A stretch of 37,371 bases of DNA from a virus (taxonomy: Duplodnaviria; Heunggongvirae; Uroviricota; Caudoviricetes). The stretch is from positions 1 to 37,371 of IMG/VR virus record IMGVR_UViG_2579779116_000018, one strand, 5' to 3'. The notes beneath the pieces were generated by a model. That model saw only the letters and a list, made by a program, of their open reading frames with translations, ran no database searches and was not told the origin of the DNA. The position numbers were made by a program, and so were the translations under genes. This document shows, one piece after another, positions 578 through 37,371 of this stretch. Positions within the stretch are counted from its first letter, which is position 1; the number at the start of each line of letters is the position of its first letter.

Positions 578-1624
578 ATGAAAATTAGGTTTGCGTGTGA
601 TATTGATTGGATTAAAAACAGTAGTCGTTCAATATCACCTAGTGTATTCGAATCTCGCATAATCGCTCTGTGTAAAGAAATTAACTATGAATTTCTTGGA
701 TTCTATGGTGAGTGGAAAGGGATTAAAACAAAACTTGTTCTAAAATGTAGTGAGGGGCATGTTTATAATTCTGCCACAATCGATGGATTTATTGGTTCTG
801 GGCGTCGTTGTCCTGAGTGCAAAAAGATTAATCTGGTAAAGAAAAAAATTCGTGCAATCTCTCCCGAAGAATATACGCGACGTCTTAATGATGTATGCCT
901 AGAAGATGGTTATACATTCATTGGATTCTATGGTGAGTGGAAAGGTAACGAGACAAAAGTAATCATGCGGTGTCCTCATGGTCATGAATATAACACAGCC
1001 ACTATAAACAGCTTTCTATGTGGTATTCGTTGTCCTGAATGTAAGCGAGACAAGCTAATAGCACGAAATACAATTTCTATTGAAGAGTATAACGAAAATA
1101 TAGAAAATATGTGTTCGTCTATCGGTTATGTTTATCATGGTATTGTTGGAGAATGGAAAGGGTATAACACTAAAATATCCCTTACTTGTTCGGCTGGTCA
1201 TACATTCAAGACGGCATCTATTAGAAGTTTTCTGTATAATGGTAGCCGTTGTCCTTGTTGTGCAAGTTACGGTTATAACGTGGCTAAAGCTGGTTATCTA
1301 TATGTACAGCACGTCACGGGCGAAGTTGAAGCCATTAAATTTGGAATCACCAACCGAAAACCGGAACAGCGAATGAGACAGCACATCAACCGTTCAAAGC
1401 TGAATCATGAACTTGTGTTCTCTATGAAATTTGAAGACGGGCAAAAGGCGCTGGATGTAGAAACGAGAATTAAGCAGATCTGGAAGGGGAAGACCGGATA
1501 TGTTTCAAGAGAGTTAATGGAAGATGGTTTTACAGAAACATTACCAGCCGAAATTATGAACGTTTTTTTAAAAGATGTTAAATCGATGTGCAATCTTGCT
1601 GTAATGAATATTAGCCTCGCCTAG
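578..1624 (+). CDS. protein with three tandem Zn-ribbon-like repeats and C-terminal T5orf172 (GIY-YIG-like) domain (348 aa)
   Basis: RBS AAGAGGAA before ATG. Three copies of about 50 aa unit F-x-G-E-W-K-G...T-K...C-x-x-G-H...R-C-P-x-C; C-terminal GYLYV...KFGIT.RKPEQRMRQH matches the T5orf172 signature from memory. Paralogous to 3405-4580 and 4735-5304. Confidence 0.75.
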   Translation: MKIRFACDIDWIKNSSRSISPSVFESRIIALCKEINYEFLGFYGEWKGIKTKLVLKCSEGHVYNSATIDGFIGSGRRCPECKKINLVKKKIRAISPEEYTRRLNDVCLEDGYTFIGFYGEWKGNETKVIMRCPHGHEYNTATINSFLCGIRCPECKRDKLIARNTISIEEYNENIENMCSSIGYVYHGIVGEWKGYNTKISLTCSAGHTFKTASIRSFLYNGSRCPCCASYGYNVAKAGYLYVQHVTGEVEAIKFGITNRKPEQRMRQHINRSKLNHELVFSMKFEDGQKALDVETRIKQIWKGKTGYVSRELMEDGFTETLPAEIMNVFLKDVKSMCNLAVMNISLA

Positions 1625-1637
1625 CGCGGGGCTTTTT
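1613..1637 (+). terminator. rho-independent terminator overlapping stop codon
   Basis: AGCCTCGC-ctagc-GCGGGGCT hairpin (one G-U pair) followed by TTTTT; stop TAG of the upstream gene lies in the loop. Confidence 0.6.
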
Positions 1638-1651
1638 ACTATGGGGTTATT

Positions 1652-3331
1652 ATGAAAACTAAGTTGTATTCATATATCCGCTTCTCGTCTATGAAGCAAG
1701 CGGATGGTAGTTCTTATGAACGCCAGAAGAGAACAGCGAAAGAGATAGCCGCAAAATATGATCTTGAGCTAGTTACAAGCTATCAGGATTTTGGTGTATC
1801 TGCATTCAAAGGGGCTAACAGTAGAACAGGTGCACTATCTCGCTTTCTGGATGAGATTGGTCGATCTGTTCCGGTTGGTAGCTGGCTGGTTGTGGAAAAC
1901 TTGGACCGTATCTCTCGCCAATCCATCATTGAAGCACAAGAGCTATTTCTCTCGATCATACGTAGGGGAATAACCATTGTCACTGGTATGGATGGGAAAG
2001 TGTATAGCCGCGAATCGGTTAATGCTAATCCCATCGATTTACTATTGAGTGTCATGTTGTTTGCGAGAGCTAACGAGGAAAGCCAGACTAAGCGCAATCG
2101 TACTAACTCAAGCGCACTGATTAAGATTAAGTCGCATCAAGAAAATCCCCAGAATCCGGCAGTGGCAATCGAGGAAGTTGGGAAGAATATGTGGTGGACG
2201 GATACCACTTCCGGTTATGTGTTGCCTCATCCTACATACTTCCCTGTTGTTCAGGAGATTGTGGAATTACGGAAGAATGGACGTTCAACCGCCGAAATAC
2301 TGGATCACCTTAACGAGACATATGCACCACCACCAGCAGTAAGCAACAAGAAGCATTCAAAATGGTCACGGGCAATGGTTGAAAGGTTGTTTCATACCCG
2401 CGCTTTGATTGGTATCAAGGAGGTCTCTGTCGATGGTGTTAACTATGAGTTAAAGGATTATTACCCTCGTGTTATTGATGATGCTACGTTCTATCACCTT
2501 AAGAAAAATATTGGTGCTAGAGCATGGAACTTTGGAGACAAGGAAGAAGTTAAACCGATCCCCCTGCTTAGTGGTATTGGCCTATTGAAATGTGATCATT
2601 GCGGTTGCGCTATGGTTAAAGTGAAGGGAACGAACAAACGTTCTGACCAGTATCGTTATACATGTGATGCGACCCGTTCACGTAGACTTGATTGCGAGCA
2701 TCCAAACTGGAGTTTTCGAGGTGATCAATTAGAGAAAGCTGTATTGCAATTGCTGGCTGATAAAATCTGGATTGCTGAGGACAAGGCTAATCCGGTTCCG
2801 GCGTTGAAAGTACAGGTTGATGAAATATCACGCAAGATTGATAACCTGATTGCCCTTTCTGCTATGACAGGAGCAACGAAGGAGCTAGCCGATCAGATTA
2901 CTACCCTCAATAGCGAGCGTGAAACACTCTACAATCAGATCAAGATGGCAGAAGAGGAAATGTATTCTGTTGACTCTCAAGGCTGGGAGAAGCTCGCAGA
3001 ATTTGATTTAGAAGATGTTTACAACGAGGAACGACTAAAGGTCCGGTTTAAGATTAAGCAAGCTCTAAAGCGGATCGGGTGTAGCAGGATTGACAGAAAC
3101 AAAAACTTGTTTGTACTGGAATACATCGATGGAAAGACCCAGAGAGTTGTAATAGAAAATTCAAGAGGAACGAGGAAAGGACAAATCTTTGTCGATTTGA
3201 AAACTATCAATGATAGGCAGATTCTGGAGAGTAACGGGCTTGTTCTGCATCCATGTTTAGACATGCTGACAGATAAGAACTGGAAACCAGAAGAGGAAAT
3301 ACCAGGTCCATTACAGGAATTTGGAATTTAA
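1652..3331 (+). CDS. large serine recombinase (559 aa)
   Basis: N-terminal resolvase-type catalytic domain (YSYIRFSSMKQ with candidate nucleophilic Ser), recombinase domain, Cys-rich zinc ribbon CDHCGC...YTCDATRSRRLDCEH, and C-terminal coiled coil: the typical large serine recombinase architecture. Confidence 0.9.
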   Translation: MKTKLYSYIRFSSMKQADGSSYERQKRTAKEIAAKYDLELVTSYQDFGVSAFKGANSRTGALSRFLDEIGRSVPVGSWLVVENLDRISRQSIIEAQELFLSIIRRGITIVTGMDGKVYSRESVNANPIDLLLSVMLFARANEESQTKRNRTNSSALIKIKSHQENPQNPAVAIEEVGKNMWWTDTTSGYVLPHPTYFPVVQEIVELRKNGRSTAEILDHLNETYAPPPAVSNKKHSKWSRAMVERLFHTRALIGIKEVSVDGVNYELKDYYPRVIDDATFYHLKKNIGARAWNFGDKEEVKPIPLLSGIGLLKCDHCGCAMVKVKGTNKRSDQYRYTCDATRSRRLDCEHPNWSFRGDQLEKAVLQLLADKIWIAEDKANPVPALKVQVDEISRKIDNLIALSAMTGATKELADQITTLNSERETLYNQIKMAEEEMYSVDSQGWEKLAEFDLEDVYNEERLKVRFKIKQALKRIGCSRIDRNKNLFVLEYIDGKTQRVVIENSRGTRKGQIFVDLKTINDRQILESNGLVLHPCLDMLTDKNWKPEEEIPGPLQEFGI

Positions 3332-3367
3332 GCGGCCTAAATCGACGTATAACGAGCTAAAACAGTT

Positions 3368-3396
3368 AAGGGGTACATTCGTACCCCTTTTTAATT
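3368..3396. terminator. bidirectional intrinsic terminator between convergent genes
   Basis: Perfect hairpin AAGGGGTAC-attc-GTACCCCTT followed by TTTTTAATTT; sits between the recombinase stop (3331) and the minus-strand gene stop (3405). Confidence 0.7.
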
Positions 3397-3404
3397 TAAT
3401 TGCA

Positions 3405-4580
3405 TTAGAGAGCGTTTAAGAGAGTATTAAAGTATTCATCCATTAAATCAGGATTGTTGTCATCAATACAGAAAAATTCCGGTTTATTGATGCCGTAGAA
3501 GTGAGTATGTAGCTTGAATGTATCGTCATCAAATACATCTTTCGGAGATACCCACATATTAGCCTCGTCCGGTTGATTGGTTAGGTAGTCATAAACCAGT
3601 TGCTGTAAGTGCGGCAACTCATCAATAGTCAGAGTTTCCGACCATCCATCCTTGAAATCTTTGTAGGGTGCTGCATGAGTCTTGAAGCGTTGTTTTACTT
3701 CATGCTCTAAATCGGCAGCTTTCCAACCATCCTCAAACTCATGAGTAAAGATTAAGCGGTGAGTGAAGTTGCTCTTTCTGGTTTGTTCTCTCATTCGTTC
3801 TTCTGGTTTTCGGGTAGTGATTCCAAATTTAATAAATTTGTCATCTAATAATTGAATGTAGAAACTAGCCTTACCCTGATAAGTCCGGTTAGACAGTTGC
3901 ACCAGTTGGTCTTTAATGCAAAGCGGACAAGTGAAAGAATCAGCACATCTTAAATGAGATTCCCATTCGTGGTTATGTGACTTGCAATAGGTTTTAAATT
4001 TAACATCCTTTAGGTGTGGGGTGTTTATGGTAAATCCTTTGAAGATGTAAGGTGTAGTCTCGCAACGTGCATTGATGATTGTCTCTTTGTCCTTAATAAC
4101 TTCATCAAAAGTCTTGCCACTTCTTACCCGTTGGGATTTTTCAGCCATACAGATTTTACAATCAAAATCAAAATCATCCTTGAGAGCATGTAATAGAGAT
4201 GGCGTCATGATTTGATTGTGTATAGGACACAAAACACGGGCTTTTGTCTTGTTGCGCCCTTTCCATTCTCCTTGCCATCCTAGAAACTTCTTTCCCTTCT
4301 CATTACAACGAGATTCCATTTTCAACCATACAGCCTTTTCAGTCTGGAATAACTCACCCCCGTTAGTATCTTCCAGTTTGCGTAATTTGTAGTCCTTATA
4401 TTCTTGTGTATCTAAATTGTAGATTCGAAAGTAAGTGTGATTACCCTTCCACGGTAGGATAAATCCACCAAATACGAAAGCAGGTTCCAGTTTAGCGATG
4501 ATTCGTTGTTGGTACTCTTCCGGCGATAAACCGCGAGTTTTCTTAACAAAAGGAATTTCGGCAGCGTAAGCAAGTTTCAT
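3405..4580 (-). CDS. Zn-ribbon-repeat / T5orf172 domain protein, paralog B (391 aa)
   Basis: Start moved from ORF-track 4691 to the internal ATG at 4578-4580, which has RBS AGAGGAAACTACT upstream and gives an N-terminus (MKLAYAAEIPFVKKTRGLSPEEY) matching the paralogs. WKG/C...CP.C repeats and C-terminal FYIQL...KFGITTRKPEERMREQ. Confidence 0.75.
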   Translation of the reverse strand: MKLAYAAEIPFVKKTRGLSPEEYQQRIIAKLEPAFVFGGFILPWKGNHTYFRIYNLDTQEYKDYKLRKLEDTNGGELFQTEKAVWLKMESRCNEKGKKFLGWQGEWKGRNKTKARVLCPIHNQIMTPSLLHALKDDFDFDCKICMAEKSQRVRSGKTFDEVIKDKETIINARCETTPYIFKGFTINTPHLKDVKFKTYCKSHNHEWESHLRCADSFTCPLCIKDQLVQLSNRTYQGKASFYIQLLDDKFIKFGITTRKPEERMREQTRKSNFTHRLIFTHEFEDGWKAADLEHEVKQRFKTHAAPYKDFKDGWSETLTIDELPHLQQLVYDYLTNQPDEANMWVSPKDVFDDDTFKLHTHFYGINKPEFFCIDDNNPDLMDEYFNTLLNAL

Positions 4581-4639
4581 AGTAGTTTCCTCTAAAATAA
4601 TAAGTTCACTACTATTTATTAGAGAAAATTGTCTTACTA

Positions 4640-4667
4640 TTGCATTCTCTATCTGAATGTGTATAAT
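4640..4667 (+). promoter_or_regulatory. putative sigma70 promoter for the 4735 gene
   Basis: TTGCAT (4640-4645), 16 bp spacer, TATAAT (4662-4667), in the divergent intergenic region 4581-4734. Confidence 0.4.
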
Positions 4668-4734
4668 ACGCGACCCTAAATCCCAAACCAACCATATTGA
4701 GGTTATGCCTATAAGTTAAAAAAGTGAGGTCTAT

Positions 4735-5304
4735 ATGATTCCAGTAATGGCTAAAGATATTGTTTTTACTCCTAAATCCTCCCGTGCTGTAACTCCATCG
4801 GCATTAGAACAACGCATTCTGACTCACATCAAAGATAAGGACTTACCATTAGTCTTTCATGGCTTTCTGGGTGAGTTTAAAGGGCTTCATTCAAGAATTG
4901 CTCTAACATGTACCCGATGCGGTAATAGAGCCGACAAATCAGCTACTAACCTGCTTAATGAAGGTAAACGATGTGTTTGCTTCAATAGTGACTACTTTCA
5001 ATATAAAGCGGGTGTGCCTTATCTCTATGTAATGAAGTCTGGGGATATTGGTAAATTTGGTGTTACAAAGTCAATCATCAAGCGACGTGTTAATCTGGGT
5101 GTACGCAATCCCGGTCATAACTTTGATATTGTCTTTGCTGGTGAAATGCCATCAATGAAACATGCTTTAGCCACTGAAAGAGCAATAAAGAGATTACTGG
5201 ATGTGGGTATAGGCGGGATTGAATACGGCAAAACTGAAACATTCCACTACTGCAATAAATCACTAAACAATATAAAGAATATTGCAAGTGTGGAGTGGAA
5301 CTAA
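4735..5304 (+). CDS. Zn-ribbon / T5orf172 domain protein, paralog C (189 aa)
   Basis: RBS GTGAGGT before ATG; one GEFKG...C..C...RCVC repeat and C-terminal PYLYV...GKFGVTKSIIKRR T5orf172-like segment. Confidence 0.75.
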   Translation: MIPVMAKDIVFTPKSSRAVTPSALEQRILTHIKDKDLPLVFHGFLGEFKGLHSRIALTCTRCGNRADKSATNLLNEGKRCVCFNSDYFQYKAGVPYLYVMKSGDIGKFGVTKSIIKRRVNLGVRNPGHNFDIVFAGEMPSMKHALATERAIKRLLDVGIGGIEYGKTETFHYCNKSLNNIKNIASVEWN

Positions 5305-6794
5305 TGCAAGATATTAAAATTCATTTTCAAGATTACAGTTTCGTTAAGGTTGATTGCTCTCCTTCTATCGGAATGGAATTAAGAGATTATTTCTCTTTTG
5401 AGGTTGAAGGGGCTAGGTTTAGCCCCCGATACAAGTATTCAGGCTGGGATGGACGAATAAGACTGTTTACGCATGAGAATACCCTACCAATTGGACTATT
5501 AAAAACGTTGGGTGTCTTTGTTAAAAATATGGGGTATTCAGTCTGGATTGACCCGCGATTGCTTGAGAAGGAAGATGTAACCAAAGAACAGATTGATTCA
5601 TGGATTGATTCTTTAGAAGTGTATTCCGGTAGCAATAAAATCAATCCTTACTGGTATCAGCGTGAAGCAGTCTTTCAGGGTATTCATAATCGCCGTAGAA
5701 TGCTGGTTCTTCCTACCAGTGCGGGTAAGTCATTGATTGCTTGTATGCTGTCTCGTTGGTACTTAGAGCATTACACCGGAAAGGTGTTAATCATTGTCCC
5801 GACTACATCGCTAGTGGTTCAAATGAGGGATGATTTCATCGATTATCGGTTATTCCCTTATGAAGCAATCCATACAATGATGAGTGGTAGCGGGAAACAT
5901 CCGGGAGACAGGTTAATCACGGTTAGTACCTGGCAATCAGCTTGCAAGATGCCTCCTGAATGGTTCAAACAATATGGAATGTTGATAGTTGATGAATCGC
6001 ATAAGGCTAGTGCCAAAAATATTACCAATATCATTAACGGAATGAATCATTGCCAATTTAAGATCGGCATGACTGGTTCCCCGAAAGAATCAAAGTGCCA
6101 TTTAATGCAGTATGTCGGGCTTTTCGGTGATATTTCCAAGATCGTGAGTATTGACCGCCTGATGGAAGAAGGGCAGGTGACAAAACTGAAAATTAACTGT
6201 CTTTTCCTTCGTTATACCGATGAGGAATGTAGCGCGGTTAAGGGGAGAGAATATGCGGAAGAGATCAAGTATATTACATCTAACCCACGACGTAATAAGT
6301 TTGCTTGCAATTTGGCGCTAAAACTCGCTAAGAAGGGCGAAAACGTATTCCTGATGTTCCGCAATACTAAGCACGGAAAACTTATGTATGACGCGTTACA
6401 GAAGGTACACGACAAGGTTTATTATATTGACGGTGGAGTTAAGACAGAAGAACGTGATGAATTTAAGAAAATGGCGGAGGGTGACACCGGGATCATTTGT
6501 GTTGCGTCTTATGGTGTGTTCTCTACTGGTGTTTCAATTAAGAATTTGCACCATGTTATTTTCGGTCATCCAGTGAAGGAATCAACTATCGTTCGTCAGA
6601 GTATCGGTCGTGCATTGCGTAAACATGGTTCTAAGGATATTGCAACGGTCTGGGATCTTATAGATCATCTGTGTATATTCGGTCGTAACGGAAAAATCAA
6701 GCATAAAAATTATGCGGTAAAACATGCACTTGAGAGAATCCGCTATTATCTAACCGACAAGTTCAGATATGCAACTAAAACAATTGCTATATAA
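5304..6794 (+). CDS. SF2 DEAD/DEAH-box DNA helicase (about 496 aa)
   Basis: Walker A LPTSAGKS, DESH box (LIVDESHKAS), motif III MTGSPK, motif VI VRQSIGRALR. Start taken as ATG 5304 (RBS GGAGTGG) rather than the ORF-track GTG at 5295. Confidence 0.85.
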   Translation: MQDIKIHFQDYSFVKVDCSPSIGMELRDYFSFEVEGARFSPRYKYSGWDGRIRLFTHENTLPIGLLKTLGVFVKNMGYSVWIDPRLLEKEDVTKEQIDSWIDSLEVYSGSNKINPYWYQREAVFQGIHNRRRMLVLPTSAGKSLIACMLSRWYLEHYTGKVLIIVPTTSLVVQMRDDFIDYRLFPYEAIHTMMSGSGKHPGDRLITVSTWQSACKMPPEWFKQYGMLIVDESHKASAKNITNIINGMNHCQFKIGMTGSPKESKCHLMQYVGLFGDISKIVSIDRLMEEGQVTKLKINCLFLRYTDEECSAVKGREYAEEIKYITSNPRRNKFACNLALKLAKKGENVFLMFRNTKHGKLMYDALQKVHDKVYYIDGGVKTEERDEFKKMAEGDTGIICVASYGVFSTGVSIKNLHHVIFGHPVKESTIVRQSIGRALRKHGSKDIATVWDLIDHLCIFGRNGKIKHKNYAVKHALERIRYYLTDKFRYATKTIAI

Positions 6795-23850: not shown

Positions 23851-24273
23851 TTAAAAACGCGCTAGATAAGAAAATTTAAGGCTAAGTGTCCCAACGATAC
23901 CACCATCACTAGAATCATCGTCATAATCGGTATTAGAGGCTACTGGAGTGATATCTGAAATTGAGAAGCCCAAATCTTTAAAACGTGGGTTATCCGGCTG
24001 AATCTGGATTATCTGGCAAATACCCTCATGAATTTTGGTTTCATGAATCTGAGAATATAATTGCATTTCGATAACGCATTCAGCTTGCATTGCATTACCA
24101 CCACGAACACGCGTATAAGTTTCATTCATGCCAGTGATCCAACAAACCACGTCATCACTAAAGCCTTGCTGAGTTTGTTCTACGTTTAAAGCCAGACCTA
24201 AATCTTGTTCGATAATATCTTGCAAGGCGCGTTTGATTTTCAGTCTAGGCATATTATTAACGGTAGCGAGCAT
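23851..24273 (-). CDS. head-tail connector protein candidate (about 140 aa)
   Basis: Start placed at internal ATG 24271-24273 with RBS AGGGGGT; small protein directly after the capsid gene region, typical position of head completion proteins. Confidence 0.5.
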   Translation of the reverse strand: MLATVNNMPRLKIKRALQDIIEQDLGLALNVEQTQQGFSDDVVCWITGMNETYTRVRGGNAMQAECVIEMQLYSQIHETKIHEGICQIIQIQPDNPRFKDLGFSISDITPVASNTDYDDDSSDGGIVGTLSLKFSYLARF

Positions 24274-28838: not shown

Positions 28839-30743
28839 TTAGAACGATGTTACCCAGCTACGGCCTCTATTTGGGCGTCTGGCGATGTTTTGACGTTGTG
28901 GTCGTGTGATTGGCTTAGTTTCTTCGATTTGCTCGTCAGATTGCGATTTAGGAGCTTCTACAGGTTCTTCTGGTTCACGGTTCAAACTATCTTTGATGGC
29001 TTCGAGTTTTTCCCATGACATTTTATTGAGTACATGACGAGAAGCAGCATAGGAATAAGCCAGGCAGTCGAGAGCCTCGTTTCGTTGCTGACCAACTTTT
29101 ACCCAACGTGTGGTATTACCCTGCCGTTTCAACTGTTCAGATAACAATTGCTCGCAATAGTCATCAGGAACGTCACCAATCTGGAAGACCGTATGAGGAT
29201 CGCTGTCTCTCAAGTTCCGGTTAATCATTTCACGGATCATCGTCTTAAGGTTGTTTACGCCCAGAATTTTGAGAGTAAAACCGCCCGTTCTTGTGTCCTT
29301 AGCCGGAAGGATTGGAGCATCAGCATTACTTGCGCCTTTAATGGCGCATAGGTTTTGCCACCTAGTGCAAAAACGGTAGATCACGTTTGTAGCTCGTCCG
29401 TTCGATGAGTCCACGAAAGCAGATAACATCGGGATTCGTTCACCGGATCGGGTATAGAATTTCGCTTTCAGGAAGTTATAAAGCTGGTCATATGCTGGCG
29501 ATTCGTGGCGTTCGCAGTTCACATCATAGAATGATCGGTGATCAACTACGCATATCCCCTTACGAGAGATACCCAGCAAGGTAGATTCCAGACGGTCTTT
29601 TTGCTGGTCAACTCCACCTACCAGAGCCAGTACATCATCAGGAATATTGTCTAGGCTAATATCAGTTTTCAGCGTTTCCAGTTCGTCGGCTGTGCGGTCT
29701 TCGTTAAGATCATCGAAGGTTTCGCCTAAGACAGTGTTATAGAACGTTGCCAGGGACATATTCGCGTAGCTATCAGCAAAGTCCACCACACACGCACGGA
29801 TAGAACTAAACGGAGACATAAGGCGGTTAGCATGAAAACCGATTACTTCCGCATTTGGTTCGGTGGCGACCCATTCTCCCTGAGCAACAGCACGGAGGCG
29901 ATCCCCTTCGGTCCAATCGGTTTCACATTCAGGGCAACGGTAAACGGCTGTATCTGGGTTGGGTAATGATTTACCGTTAATCGTATGCCAATCGAAATGT
30001 ACGTTACTCCATTCCATTACGTGCTTGTGTCCGCAATGCTGGCAAACGACATGATATTTTCTCTTATCCGAGAGTTCCCATTGTTGGTTAATCGCCCCAT
30101 CACGAGCGGTTGGAGTGGAAGCAATTACGATCCTTGCATCTTCCCCGAAAGTGGTTGCGCGTTGTTCCGCTAGCTGGATCGGGTTCCCTTCGTCTGACTC
30201 ATCAGCCGCATCAACTTCATCAAGAATAATCAAAGGGAGTGTTTTACCGCGAAGATGTGACGGACTATTCAACGACATGAAATACATAAACGATCCGTTA
30301 CGAAGCTGAATAATCGATGAGTTGTTAACGGCATTGCGATCTGATTTGTCGGTGATCATCGCTTTTAATTCTGGCGTTGCCTCTAATACTGGCTTCACCT
30401 TACCAGCGATCCAAGAATTTAGTTCCCTAACGTTACTTTGCAAGACCCCAATATTAGTAGGGTTACTCGCGATCCGATGGAAGATAATTCCGTTAAGAAT
30501 CATGGTCTTACCCAACTGCGCCGAACATTTAAACACAATTTTTCTACGGTCTTCGGTGATCGCGTCCATCATTCCACGTTGGAAGGGATGCAATTTAATT
30601 AGCGATCCGGCTTTAACACCATCGGTTGCAACTACATTAGCCTCTACCCATTCGCTAGGTTTCATGGCTTTAGGTGGGCGAATTGCAGCAGAGATATTTC
30701 TGAGAATCTTTTTTAATTTTGCCTTATTAGAAATCAGTTTCAT
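28839..30743 (-). CDS. terminase large subunit, lambda gpA-like (634 aa)
   Basis: HPFQRGMMDAI, Walker A-like KCSAQLGKTM, Asp-rich LIILDEVDAADE, Cys cluster CQHCGH...CPEC; first gene of the minus-strand late operon. Confidence 0.9.
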   Translation of the reverse strand: MKLISNKAKLKKILRNISAAIRPPKAMKPSEWVEANVVATDGVKAGSLIKLHPFQRGMMDAITEDRRKIVFKCSAQLGKTMILNGIIFHRIASNPTNIGVLQSNVRELNSWIAGKVKPVLEATPELKAMITDKSDRNAVNNSSIIQLRNGSFMYFMSLNSPSHLRGKTLPLIILDEVDAADESDEGNPIQLAEQRATTFGEDARIVIASTPTARDGAINQQWELSDKRKYHVVCQHCGHKHVMEWSNVHFDWHTINGKSLPNPDTAVYRCPECETDWTEGDRLRAVAQGEWVATEPNAEVIGFHANRLMSPFSSIRACVVDFADSYANMSLATFYNTVLGETFDDLNEDRTADELETLKTDISLDNIPDDVLALVGGVDQQKDRLESTLLGISRKGICVVDHRSFYDVNCERHESPAYDQLYNFLKAKFYTRSGERIPMLSAFVDSSNGRATNVIYRFCTRWQNLCAIKGASNADAPILPAKDTRTGGFTLKILGVNNLKTMIREMINRNLRDSDPHTVFQIGDVPDDYCEQLLSEQLKRQGNTTRWVKVGQQRNEALDCLAYSYAASRHVLNKMSWEKLEAIKDSLNREPEEPVEAPKSQSDEQIEETKPITRPQRQNIARRPNRGRSWVTSF

Positions 30744-30828: not shown

Positions 30829-31431
30829 ATGCTAATTAATCAGCAACAAAGAGATGAATTAGAATTAGCCTTGTCTTGTACCGATCATGAATATCGTTTA
30901 CCAGTTAAGCATAAGCATTTAAAAACCGACTACACAACATCTGGCTTTAGTCGTGAGGAAGCGAAAGAGATTTTAATCGAGTTGTATCGCGATCATGGGT
31001 ATACCGATATTCATAACTTCTTTAAGAAGCATCGCACATCACAGACAGAGTTTCGGAGAGTCCGAGATTGGTTTGATTTTGATATCAAGCGTTATTATCG
31101 CATTGATGACGGTCCTATCTATAGGTTGCAGTGGAAGCCGATCCGAGAAGTGTTGAAACAGAAGAGATTGAATCACGCTATTACACGCTATCGTAACGTG
31201 GCTTTCAAGAAAGGCTATGGTGATACAAGGGAATTGTTTGTAGAACTCGCTAACGTGCGTTATAGCCACTATTACAACGATCCTAAAGGGTTCTTTGAAG
31301 TGCTTCGCAAGGTTGATATAAGTCGGGGGACATACTATTCACGGTTGAAGAAGTACGGGATTAAGGCAGAGTTCTTTATGTCGGTTGACGATGGAGAACT
31401 TTTTCCGATAAAATGTAAGTCCTCTAAATAA
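30829..31431 (+). CDS. hypothetical protein with C-terminal DNA-binding-like motif (200 aa)
   Basis: RBS AAAGGGGGTT; C-terminal RGTYYSRLKKYGIKAEF resembles the motif in 31467-31694 and 34911-35093. Confidence 0.6.
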   Translation: MLINQQQRDELELALSCTDHEYRLPVKHKHLKTDYTTSGFSREEAKEILIELYRDHGYTDIHNFFKKHRTSQTEFRRVRDWFDFDIKRYYRIDDGPIYRLQWKPIREVLKQKRLNHAITRYRNVAFKKGYGDTRELFVELANVRYSHYYNDPKGFFEVLRKVDISRGTYYSRLKKYGIKAEFFMSVDDGELFPIKCKSSK

Positions 31432-31466
31432 AGGTGAACATTCACTTTAATTTGGAGGAAGTAACT

Positions 31467-31694
31467 ATGACTACTAAAGCTACTCGCGGTCGCCCTGCCC
31501 GTTTTAACGCTGAACAGATGGCTGATATTGCCTACGCTTACTATACAGCGGATCGTGGTAAGGAAGCGAAAGAACAGATTCTTAGTGAACATGGGATCTC
31601 AATCGCCCAATTCTATAAGAATATGAAGAAGTTAGACATTAAATTCTATGTTCAGATCGGTGATGGTCAGATCGTAGAAGCAACAGGTTTTTGA
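31467..31694 (+). CDS. small putative DNA-binding protein (75 aa)
   Basis: Start at ATG 31467 with strong RBS GGAGGAAG; N-terminal TRGRPARF (AT-hook-like) and C-terminal IAQFYKNMKKLDIKF motif. Confidence 0.55.
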   Translation: MTTKATRGRPARFNAEQMADIAYAYYTADRGKEAKEQILSEHGISIAQFYKNMKKLDIKFYVQIGDGQIVEATGF

Positions 31695-33525: not shown

Positions 33526-33725
33526 AGTGGTATCCTCTAAAAGAAAGTGAATCAAACAAAGTACACTAGTATTTATAACGAGAATTTTTTATCTATTTGG
33601 AAGTGATTAGATTCAGTCGGCTTCGCCTCCTTCATAGATTTTGATTAAATCATCATCAAAACGAAGAAGTATCTTTAGAATATAAGAATCTTTCTTTTGG
33701 AGAAATTATAATCAGGAAGCAATTT

Positions 33726-34057
33726 AGCAACCGAAGGTTGCAATCCCGAAGGGATACCAATACCTTTCATGATCATTAAAGTGATCTAGAATCATCTAGT
33801 AACCAGTTAACTACTATTATCTTCAAAGTGATTATTACTATCTTTCTAGAATCAGTTAGTAACTAGTTTAAAATCCCTTTCAAGAAAATCCTTTCAGAAG
33901 TGATTCTCGATGCCACGCAGTGGCGTCGCAGACGTTTGAGAGTGAGCGAAGCGAGCGAGCAAACTAGTTAATTCCTTCTAAGACCATCTAGTATCATCTA
34001 GTTTAAATTAGTGTTACTAGAAGTAATTGGTTAGCGCTTCGCGCAGTCGGGCTACGC
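33726..34057. repeat. three pairs of short tandem hairpins interleaved with CTAG-rich AT-rich repeats
   Basis: Pairs at 33726-33753 (GCAACCgaaGGTTGC + ATCCCgaaGGGAT), 33911-33934 (GCCACgcaGTGGC + CGTCgcaGACG), 34032-34057 (GCGCttcGCGC + GGGCtacGCCC), separated by repeats such as TCTAGAATCATCTAGTAACCAGTT. Confidence 0.4.
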
Positions 34058-34203
34058 CCTCCTAATATCTTTTTGGTTATTTGTTGTTTTTGGTTTTACA
34101 CATGAGCGTAGCGAATGTGTTATATAATATCTATGCACGCCCGATCCCCGCTTTTGCCCCTCACTAAGTTAATGTTTTATAAAGAGTTTTTCTTACCAAT
34201 CCT

Positions 34204-34393
34204 TTTCGGGGGCAAATTTCAGGGGCAAAAATTAGATTTTCAGGGGCAATTATTGGCATTTCAGGGGCAAAAATGAGGGGCAAAATCACCGTTTCCCAGA
34301 ATTTCAGGGGCAAAAATAGTAGGTTTCAGGGGCAAAAATGGGATAGTGAAATCTAGGGGGATTTTGGTTCAGGGGCAAAATTCAGGGGCAATT
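34204..34393. repeat. iteron-like direct repeats, consensus TTCAGGGGCAAAA (about 10 copies)
   Basis: Copies at approx 34204, 34218, 34238, 34260, 34274, 34304, 34324, 34352 (degenerate), 34369, 34381, irregularly spaced; all same orientation; immediately upstream of the promoter at 34461. Confidence 0.7.
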
Positions 34394-34460
34394 TTCATAG
34401 TGTAGGGCTAGTGTAGGTTTGAAAGTCCTTTCTTGACACTATGTAGGTTTGGTGCTATAC

Positions 34461-34490
34461 TTGACAATTCGAGAAAAAATGTGGTATAAT
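34461..34490 (+). promoter_or_regulatory. strong sigma70 promoter with extended -10
   Basis: TTGACA (34461-34466), 18 bp spacer, TGGTATAAT (34482-34490). Confidence 0.6.
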
Positions 34491-34727
34491 ATTTGTATTG
34501 AAAGTGAAAATTTACCGATTTTCCTTCCTATTGTTATCACCGTGTTAAATTGTTATATGTTTGTGAAGATTTGGATCTGAGAGAAAATCTTGTAACAAAT
34601 CTTTACAATTCATAGCTCAATTAATGCTCACCGCTTTAGCAAAAAGTGCTATGCAATTTTCTAAATTGATTGAATAAACATCAATTTGGTTAATTCGTGT
34701 TCTTCTCTTTAGCAATTCGTGCTGCGG

Positions 34728-34780
34728 TTTAACACATTTAACACGTCTGATAACATCTGAATAACATTTTAACATATCTC
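34728..34780 (+). repeat. five phased TAACA repeats at about 10-11 bp spacing
   Basis: TTAACACA, TTAACACG, GATAACATC, AATAACATT, TTTAACATA in the same orientation, one per helical turn. Confidence 0.4.
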
Positions 34781-34817
34781 TGTTATAAATACATATATAA
34801 GAGATAAATGTGAGGGG

Positions 34818-34847
34818 TTGAAAAATAAAATACAATCCCCATATAAA
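34818..34847 (+). promoter_or_regulatory. possible second promoter
   Basis: TTGAAA (34818-34823), 18 bp spacer, TATAAA (34842-34847); weaker match. Confidence 0.3.
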
Positions 34848-34854
34848 TAATAGT

Positions 34855-34875
34855 GAGCGGTTAACGCTCTTTTTT
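34855..34875 (+). terminator. intrinsic terminator / attenuator within the leader
   Basis: GAGCG-gttaa-CGCTC hairpin followed by TTTTTT, 35 nt upstream of ATG 34911. Confidence 0.5.
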
Positions 34876-34910
34876 AAGAAATCATTAATCCAGATTTAGG
34901 AGGATTTAAG

Positions 34911-35093
34911 ATGGCACGACCTGTTAAGTTCACTCGTGAAATCGTTTTAGAAATGGCAAAGCGTTATTTTGAACTGACACCTGATGTAGTGATGGGTGAA
35001 TGGTTTAAAGGTGAAGGTATTGATCAATCAACCTTCCACAAACTCTTAAAGAAGTATGACATTAAAGTAAAGATTACCGCAGAGGTGTGGTAA
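34911..35093 (+). CDS. small putative DNA-binding protein (60 aa)
   Basis: Strong RBS AGGAGGA; MARPVKF N-terminus and STFHKLLKKYDIKVKI C-terminal motif, paralogous to 31467-31694. Confidence 0.6.
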   Translation: MARPVKFTREIVLEMAKRYFELTPDVVMGEWFKGEGIDQSTFHKLLKKYDIKVKITAEVW

Positions 35094-36810: not shown

Positions 36811-37371
36811 TTAAGACACATCAAATTCATCGTCTTCTTCTGGTTCTTGTTCTTGTTCTTCCGGTTCATCCATTAATGGTAATTCTTCTTCCTCGTCTTC
36901 TCCCAAATCTGCATTTTCGAACAAGTCCCCTACTTCATTTAAACGACGCTCGATAATCTCCCTTAGCTTATTCTTTAATGTTTTCTGGTCAGTGGCAGAT
37001 TCGAGAATTTCTAAAGCGTCGATTGTGGCGATCTGCAAAATAGTCTGCTTCACTTTCCCGCAGTATTCCGCTAGTTCCTGTTCTACATACCCGACCGGAA
37101 TCAGGAGATTCATAGCTTCCTGGTTCTCTCGTTCGGCTGCATCCGCTAATGCTCTTTCCCGGCGCAACTTCTCAACATCTATTTGTTCTTTTATAGAAGT
37201 TTCTTTGAGCGGATTAATGATGTTCTTCAAGACCCATTCTGTCCCTTCTTTGGCTGGTACGCGTCGTGTATTGGTATTAAATGGCATTCCTCGTTCTTGC
37301 CATTTCTTAGCGGCGTTAATTGTATAGCCGTATAAGCGGGAAATTTCTGTAAGGGTTAATTCTTCTTTCAT
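36811..37371 (-). CDS. Nu1-like DNA-binding protein, candidate terminase small subunit (at least 186 aa)
   Basis: N-terminal LTLTEISRLYGYTINAAKKWQERGMPF resembles the lambda Nu1 winged-helix segment (IRTIQNWQEQGMPV); acidic C-terminus. The ATG coincides with the last 3 nt of the window, so the true 5' end is not verifiable. Confidence 0.6.
   Translation of the reverse strand: MKEELTLTEISRLYGYTINAAKKWQERGMPFNTNTRRVPAKEGTEWVLKNIINPLKETSIKEQIDVEKLRRERALADAAERENQEAMNLLIPVGYVEQELAEYCGKVKQTILQIATIDALEILESATDQKTLKNKLREIIERRLNEVGDLFENADLGEDEEEELPLMDEPEEQEQEPEEDDEFDVS

Follow-up and report, generated by a model that had tools for sequence, protein, structure and literature searches.

The stretch of DNA analysed here, called the window throughout, is 37,371 nt long. 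It is a tailed-phage genome with portal, capsid, tail and lysis genes, a gene for a gpA-type large terminase (TerL) and one for a large serine recombinase (serine integrase), and it carries an array of short direct repeats (iterons) in a long non-coding region (Table 1). Relatives of this DNA are flanked by E. coli ycdX and ghrA, and in strain VTB96775v a prophage of 34.8 kb lies between the two halves of ycdX. The window is an E. coli prophage of ~35-37 kb integrated in ycdX. Among 5,426 complete E. coli genomes, 57 contained the non-coding region, at 62 places, all 62 of them chromosomal and none on a plasmid; some 1% of complete E. coli genomes contain a member of the prophage family. In 27 related prophages the array was of one of two repeat types, CAGGGGCAA (G, as in the window) or TAGTGTAGG (T).

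The prophage family is without a characterised member. In the phage collection no isolated relative was found except the first ~26 kb of the record of Escherichia phage DCP80, the closest phage record, whose TerL is 43% identical. This record (PQ671644.1, 'Gaprivervirus', 141 kb) starts with ~26 kb of prophage-related DNA, in which a non-coding region with GCGAAGC-type motifs is followed by TerL, capsid, tail, lysis and TerS-like genes, and then continues with T4-like genes (motA, rIIA). Since the rest of the record is T4-like it looks chimeric, whether through an error of assembly or through genuine recombination.

Scans of the phage with Pfam, PHROGs and NCBIfam recognised no initiator, helicase loader, primase, partition ATPase or CI-like repressor. 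The UvsW-type helicase is a full-length close homologue of phage T4 UvsW (E = 1e-183 to PDB 2oca), and three CapR/T5orf172-domain genes flank its gene. These four genes, at 578-6794, are missing from the VTB96775v relative (NZ_CP178634.1 prophage) and are consequently regarded as cargo. At the right junctions of two relatives, L109 (1-351) and L132 (4758-5183), different host genes were found, a HicB-like antitoxin gene and ycdX, and the interrupted host ORFs both end in the phage-supplied peptide GNPNVVNP(K/Q). This common ending points to a short core shared by the sites of the serine integrase. ARAGORN reported a 91-nt tRNA-Gln(ttg) on the plus strand at 23996-24086, inside the block of structural genes on the minus strand; it is probably a false positive.

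Table 1. Positions of the features discussed, in window coordinates
Feature	Position	Strand	Remarks
CapR/T5orf172-domain genes	578-1624, 3405-4691, 4735-5304
Large serine recombinase (serine integrase)	1652-3331
UvsW-type helicase	5295-6794
Large terminase (TerL), gpA type	28839-30743
200-aa HTH-like protein	30829-31431		Both halves paralogous to the 60-aa protein; pI 9.5
86-aa HTH-like protein	31434-31694		Paralogue of the 60-aa protein
Four C(GNA)G tri-loop mini-hairpins	33727-33934	+
Tandem pair of C(GNA)G mini-hairpins	34034-34059	-	GGGCGTAGCCC and GCGCGAAGCGC; conserved across lineages
DnaA-box match, relaxed	34094-34102	+	TTTTACACA
Single inverted iteron	34152-34163 (match 34154-34162)	-	TGAGGGGCAAAA; 40 bp left of the array
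Iteron array	34204-34393	+	Nine clear copies and one degenerate copy in the same orientation; consensus TTTCAGGGGCAAAAAT, core AGGGGCAA
Degenerate tenth iteron	34353-34365	+	CTAGGGGGATTTT; read from the sequence
Two T-type iterons	34398-34417	+	TAGTGTAGG; between array and promoters; read from the sequence
Tandem sigma-70-like promoters	34433-34490	+	TTGACA-17-TATACT and TTGACA-18-TATAAT, both with TG
Third T-type iteron	34440-34450	+	TATGTAGGTTT; within the spacer of promoter 34433-34461
Untranslated structured leader	34497-34880	+	Terminator hairpin 34855-34869 and T run, just before the 60-aa ORF
60-aa basic RGRP/HTH-like protein	34911-35093	+	First gene of the operon; pI 9.0
Protein X, 313 aa	35207-36148	+	Putative iteron-binding protein; co-variation at 27/27 loci
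TerS-like protein	36811-37371		Nu1-like TerS candidate, phrog_57

The iteron array, its surroundings and protein X

A preliminary description of this DNA had placed about ten same-orientation repeats at 34204-34393, in non-coding DNA, with an irregular spacing of 12-45 bp and a strong promoter at 34461-34490. Its coordinates and count were accurate, and no credible ORF was found in the 1.35-kb stretch 33556-34910, which bears out the non-coding assignment. The spacing was roughly right, the start-to-start distances being 13, 21, 21, 13, 30, 22, 27, 16 and 13 bp. The promoter is a 12/12 match with an extended -10 element. We also agree that the array is not a CRISPR, since the repeats are 12-16 nt long and spaced by 13-30 bp and do not have the regular 24-48-nt form.

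When one mismatch or fewer was allowed, nine plus-strand copies of CAGGGGCAA were found in the array, starting at 34207, 34220, 34241, 34262, 34275, 34305, 34327, 34370 and 34383. All seven exact copies in the 37-kb window fall within the array. At the same tolerance the window contains 18 matches, compared with 5.4 +/- 2.1 in shuffled sequences, and 18 was reached in none of 100 shuffles. Six of the iterons (34220, 34241, 34262, 34305, 34327 and 34370) follow one another at 21, 21, 43, 22 and 43 bp. These distances are multiples of ~10.6 bp, and the six iterons are thus in helical phase. No relative of the array turned up when the DNA of the phage and plasmid collections was searched for near and for distant matches, and a literature search on the iteron motif and on ycdX prophages returned nothing relevant.

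The tandem promoters start 40 bp downstream (to the right) of the array, and the first of them (34433-34461) is an 11/12 match. The three T-type iterons around this promoter, in a phage with a G-type protein, are either a leftover of recombination or a potential site of regulation by a co-resident T-type phage. The leader that follows is strongly folded, with a minimum free energy of -102.4 compared with -65.3 +/- 4.9 for shuffled sequences (z = -7.65), and its segment 34541-34556 is complementary both to 34736-34745 and to 34761-34774. Relatives have one of two unrelated leader alleles, A (as in the window) and B; module B folds with z = -2.4 and has its own terminator at the same place. In close relatives the mosaic changes abruptly right at the last iteron, and the DNA to the right of it is promoter/leader module A or B. 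Rfam gave no match for the leader or the region. By analogy with P4 CI or ColE1 RNA II, the leader may be an RNA-based regulator.

C(GNA)G mini-hairpins are clustered to the left of the array. The window has seven of them, six within 33727-34059, where shuffled sequences have a mean of 0.04; the cluster has further positions at about 33620, 33945 and 34107. The hairpins distal to the array are on the plus strand and the tandem pair proximal to it is on the minus strand. The same strand switch was seen in L235, L176, L217, L182 and L211, five of the seven other lineages examined. The switch and the tandem pair were still present in relatives of no more than 43-68% TerL identity, in which the stem sequences of the proximal hairpins differ and the GNA loops are kept. 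Mini-hairpins of the d(GCGAAGC) type are unusually stable in DNA, and the hairpins may be single-strand DNA signals or RNA elements. The non-coding segment 33631-33717 is 77-82% identical to an unannotated element that occurs four times per genome in RB49-like (Krischvirus) T-even phages; we assume that this element may be a 'PeSL' promoter/stem-loop cassette.

Protein X is the second gene behind the strong promoter, the long leader and the terminator. Its residues 1-165 are basic (pI 9.6, net charge +7) and the remainder is acidic (net charge -23). The structure model, of moderate confidence (pLDDT 61), has a long helix at ~182-237 and gave no meaningful fold match. Comparison of X with Pfam, PHROGs, NCBIfam and, in a profile search, all PDB sequences gave no domain match, the only hits being to coiled-coil models. 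Two word-indexed protein searches returned mainly near-identical E. coli copies; an exhaustive search of 1.8 billion representative proteins found only 12 relatives, and none was found in 72,556 plasmids. Many members of the family end in ..AA, ..FA or ..LVA, which may be likened to ssrA-like ClpXP tags.

Repeat type and protein X in related prophages

Relatives were collected from IMG/VR by a scan with a two-iteron pattern and a scan with a TerL profile, which together gave ~45 related loci. The first, looser two-iteron pattern had returned mostly unrelated matches, taken as collagen-like coding repeats, and only one relative; the tighter pattern that succeeded in IMG/VR returned nothing related in one-genome-per-species contigs. 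The iteron of the window was kept in 14 IMG/VR relatives, in 6-10 copies, and the arrays of these close relatives differ by in-register deletions. In 12 relatives a TAGTGTAGG array of 6-9 copies occupies the same position. The search for the iteron in related phages proposed in the preliminary description was thus positive, while that in plasmids found no relative.

The type of the array follows the N-terminal domain of protein X. Each of the 15 loci with a CAGGGGCAA array encodes a G-type N-domain (~175 aa, 98-100% identity) and each of the 12 loci with a TAGTGTAGG array a T-type N-domain, a concordance of 27/27 loci; the two N-domains have no mutual BLASTP match at E 1e-3. G-type X was present in 35 and T-type X in 18 of the 5,426 complete E. 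coli genomes, and one genome had both types. X is the only gene that tracks the repeat type, and the part that does so is its N-terminal ~175-240 aa. Relative L177 has G-type X residues 1-243 with a different C-terminus, and its array is G. P0121 is a natural chimera with a third N-domain and a G-type X C-terminus.

Other markers at the locus are reassorted. The leader allele and the 60-aa gene both lie between the array and X, and all four combinations with array type were found for them. The alleles of TerL (98% versus 59% identity), of the 160-aa, 86-aa and 200-aa proteins and of Rha occur in every combination with both array types. Because intervening and adjacent markers reassort, the match between array and X is kept by selection and not by linkage alone. 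The array and the N-domain of X are very likely a lock-and-key pair, and X probably binds the iterons through this domain, as judged from co-variation that is kept across recombination. A role of the array as a G-quadruplex or as bent DNA was considered, but would not explain why a T-type array free of G runs replaces the G array whenever the protein changes.

The preliminary description had looked for the binder elsewhere. It did not name the 313-aa X, and the candidates that it did name (the 60-aa, 86-aa and TerS-like proteins) share alleles between phages that differ in repeat type. That a small RGRP/HTH protein (60-aa, 86-aa or 200-aa) binds the array would be in keeping with a paralogous family, two of whose members are basic, encoded beside the array, and direct-repeat arrays are indeed bound by small winged-helix proteins, among them P2 Cox and 186 Apl. 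However, identical or near-identical alleles of each of the three occur with both G and T arrays; L175, for instance, has a 100% identical 60-aa protein and a T array, so that both array types occur with that allele. As X alone co-varies with the repeat type, the array would be the target of X and not of the small RGRP proteins, and binding by one of the latter is highly improbable. The 60-aa protein, the 86-aa protein and the halves of the 200-aa protein are domains that begin (R)GRP-x-K/R-F and that gave no family match in Pfam or NCBIfam, and in relative L182 paralogues of the 60-aa, 86-aa and 200-aa types are all in the X operon.

More distant relatives have the same arrangement with other sequences. 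In L235, which is also in ycdX, X is 50% identical and the core AGGGGCAAAAA is kept in seven copies and one inverted copy; the spacing is wholly different and the inverted copy lies to the left of the array. Distant relatives with a TerL identity of 53-68% share the order TerS-like gene, X, small HTH gene, non-coding region with array, TerL. L182, L205, L210, L211 and L217 have this gene order, with an iteron and an X N-domain peculiar to each. The iterons are AGTAGCATTTGAA in L182, TCCCCGYG in L205, TCCCCCGGTATTAGG and GATGTACAAG in L210, AATGACACTCAATC in L211 and TGTGCAACGTTG in L217. L205 and L210 each have two X-like proteins and two arrays. The second X-like protein is encoded downstream of X (L205:2071-3072 and L210:2225-3316), and L176 retains an 80-aa coiled-coil remnant (2977-3219); all three products end in TLRLVA or TLRIVA. 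X and its iterons form an exchangeable specificity module with at least three types among E. coli phages and others in distant relatives.

Candidate functions of the module

Our best guess, which we hold tentatively, is that the array is the origin of lytic replication and X its initiator. The basic N-domain of X would read an iteron of ~9-12 bp (core AGGGGCAA), the coiled coil would join the bound molecules into one multi-protein complex over ~190 bp, and the acidic C-terminal part would contact a conserved partner. With X loaded on the iterons, transcription from the tandem promoters would run away from the array and provide X itself. On the left, at 120-470 bp, the GNA-loop mini-hairpins of opposite strands would serve as single-strand priming signals. 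Opposite-strand hairpin signals (ssiA/ssiB) lie by the iterons in RSF1010 oriV, and by this analogy we consider the priming role of the hairpins a lead.

In favour of an origin, the prophage is complete and yet has no recognisable initiator, helicase loader or primase, and the 34.8-kb relative does even without the UvsW cargo. The iterons vary freely in copy number (6-10) and spacing, with some of the distances at 21-22 bp. The same-orientation cluster is beyond chance, and a gene nearby has a putative DNA-binding part that co-varies with it. The hairpins just left of the array, with their recurrent strand switch, and the one relaxed DnaA box also speak for an origin. On the other hand, X resembles none of the known initiator families (Rep_3, phage O, RepA/TrfA/pi and similar). 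Neither a helicase loader nor a clear AT-rich unwinding element was found; the AT content near the iterons is only moderate and no 13-mer-type element was seen. The DnaA-box match is present only in G-type relatives and L235 and absent from T-type and other distant relatives, and is for that reason weak evidence. Furthermore, the two X-like proteins with two arrays in L205 and L210 would be more in keeping with a regulatory switch than with an origin, and the presence of an iteron within a promoter spacer in some relatives indicates at least a regulatory side-role.

Such a switch could resemble the control of phage Mu, with X as repressor/immunity protein or autoregulator, the array as a multi-site operator between divergent units and the types as heteroimmune classes. 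Mu c consists of a DNA-binding domain at the N-terminus, a middle part like a leucine zipper and a C-terminal tail and acts at ~9 sites over ~200 bp, and Mu and D108 differ just in the c/operator region. The architecture of X may be compared with that of Mu c, a CI-like repressor was not found in the phage, and sharp allelic types in phages otherwise ~90% identical are typical of immunity regions. One T-type iteron lies in the spacer of promoter 34433-34461 with two more just upstream, some relatives have the doubled proteins and arrays already described, and the ends of X, if they are indeed ssrA-like tags, would fit as well. Nevertheless we consider this reading rather unlikely. On neither strand of the window do G iterons and predicted promoters overlap, the only iteron in a promoter spacer being the foreign T-type one. 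The distance between array and promoter varies from ~40 to ~250 bp among relatives, and promoter scans of the distant relatives gave no consistent array-promoter geometry. Copy numbers of 6-10 would not be tolerated by a precise operator geometry. A maintenance repressor would not usually be the second gene after a strong promoter, leader and terminator, as X is. Immunity could come from other polymorphic HTH genes (those for the 86-aa and 60-aa proteins and Rha), and X is without a family match, so that homology to Mu c or the MuA N-domain was not found.

The preliminary description had listed a replication origin, a centromere-like site and the binding site of a regulator. This was the right set of options, but a centromere-like site for single-protein partition or anchoring in the style of pSK1 Par or ParR-parC is very improbable. 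Direct repeats and one inverted copy upstream of a gene for a coiled-coil DNA-binding protein would suit it, geometry and copy number are tolerant, and pSK1 Par, which works as a single protein, also has a coiled coil. However, every one of the 62 places in the complete genomes is on a chromosome. The prophage lies in ycdX and encodes a large serine integrase, neither ParA nor ParM nor TubZ came up in the family scans, and X had no match among the plasmids searched. Improbable too is a role in packaging like that of cosB or pac, in which the array would be recognised by the small terminase or by X as a specificity factor that hands the DNA to TerL. In every relative TerL is preceded, in the same orientation, by the long non-coding region, from which it is separated in DCP80, L211 and L217 by no more than one or two ORFs, and the layout of X (DNA-binding N-domain, coiled coil, acidic C-tail) is that of TerS proteins in general. 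The initial GRP-K-F/Y motif of the 60-aa paralogues, too, presumably resembles TerS N-termini. Against packaging, the TerS-like protein does not co-vary with the array, because it is 89-99% conserved across both iteron types, and the type of X is independent of the TerL allele (98% versus 59% identity). From the array it is 3.5 kb to TerL and 2.4 kb to the TerS-like gene. No cos or cosN was located, and the metagenomic contigs that end in the region do so at inconsistent positions, so that these ends are assembly breaks.

If the array is a replication origin, a wider proposal can be made, which we regard as doubtful. X and the iterons may represent a previously unrecognised class of initiator and origin, in which a small basic N-domain of unassigned fold would recognise the short iterons, a coiled-coil complex would form on the array, the opposite-strand GNA hairpins would provide the entry for the host primase, X would be the single replication protein of the 35-kb temperate phage, with no loader, and the N-domain/iteron types would be incompatibility classes among co-infecting prophages.

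The module pairs a defined DNA motif with an unannotated protein domain and includes natural specificity swaps (G, T, others and chimeras), by which the DNA-recognition code of a new protein family is made directly testable. If X and the array are initiator and origin, the replication of a phage without recognisable replication genes would be explained; if they are an immunity module, the missing repressor would be identified. With either function, hundreds of 'hypothetical protein' entries would receive an annotation.

Comparison with known systems

The lambdoid O/ori-lambda system is similar in that same-orientation repeats are clustered about two helical turns apart with a strong promoter nearby. 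A specificity-setting N-domain with an exchangeable C-terminus is the paradigm of lambda O/ori, and here also the N-terminal part would set the iteron specificity and differs between close phages while the C-terminal part is exchangeable. Unlike those of lambda, the iterons lie ~0.8 kb upstream of the gene and not inside it, they are not palindromic, and there is no P-like loader. Since X matches no Pfam, PHROGs or NCBIfam family, it is not recognised as a phage O or Rep protein. The iteron origins of plasmids (P1 oriR, F, pSC101, RK2) likewise have direct repeats ahead of the gene whose product binds them, as here in part at 21-22 bp, and one DnaA-box-like site is a further likeness. In RSF1010 oriV, opposite-strand hairpin elements (ssiA/ssiB) adjoin the iterons in a similar layout. 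Compared with plasmid and RSF1010 origins, the core is short (~9-12 bp), the spacing is irregular (13-30 bp), a Rep family match is absent, and the element belongs to an integrating phage without its own primase or helicase.

Mu c and its operators O1-O3, as compared between Mu and D108, share with X and its array the DNA-binding N-domain, the coiled-coil oligomerisation region and the C-terminal tail, the ~9-10 short sites over ~200 bp between divergent units, and the type-specific alleles. In contrast to Mu c, X has no sequence match in Pfam or PDB, so that a resemblance to the Mu repressor or to MuA was not seen, and in contrast to the Mu operators the G iterons are off the predicted promoters and all copies but one share their orientation. 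In pSK1 Par and type II ParR-parC a direct-repeat array again lies upstream of the gene for a coiled-coil or oligomeric protein, and changes in copy number are tolerated. The differences from them are the chromosomally integrated phage, the lack of a partition NTPase and an X with no HTH, RHH or DUF536 match.

Thus the module of X and array resembles lambda O-ori, Rep-iterons, Mu c-operators and pSK1 Par-centromere, with homology to none of the four detected. In the sources searched the protein family, the set of iterons, the specificity classes and the hairpin cluster are undescribed; what is familiar is the combination of a repeat array with a cognate oligomeric binding protein.
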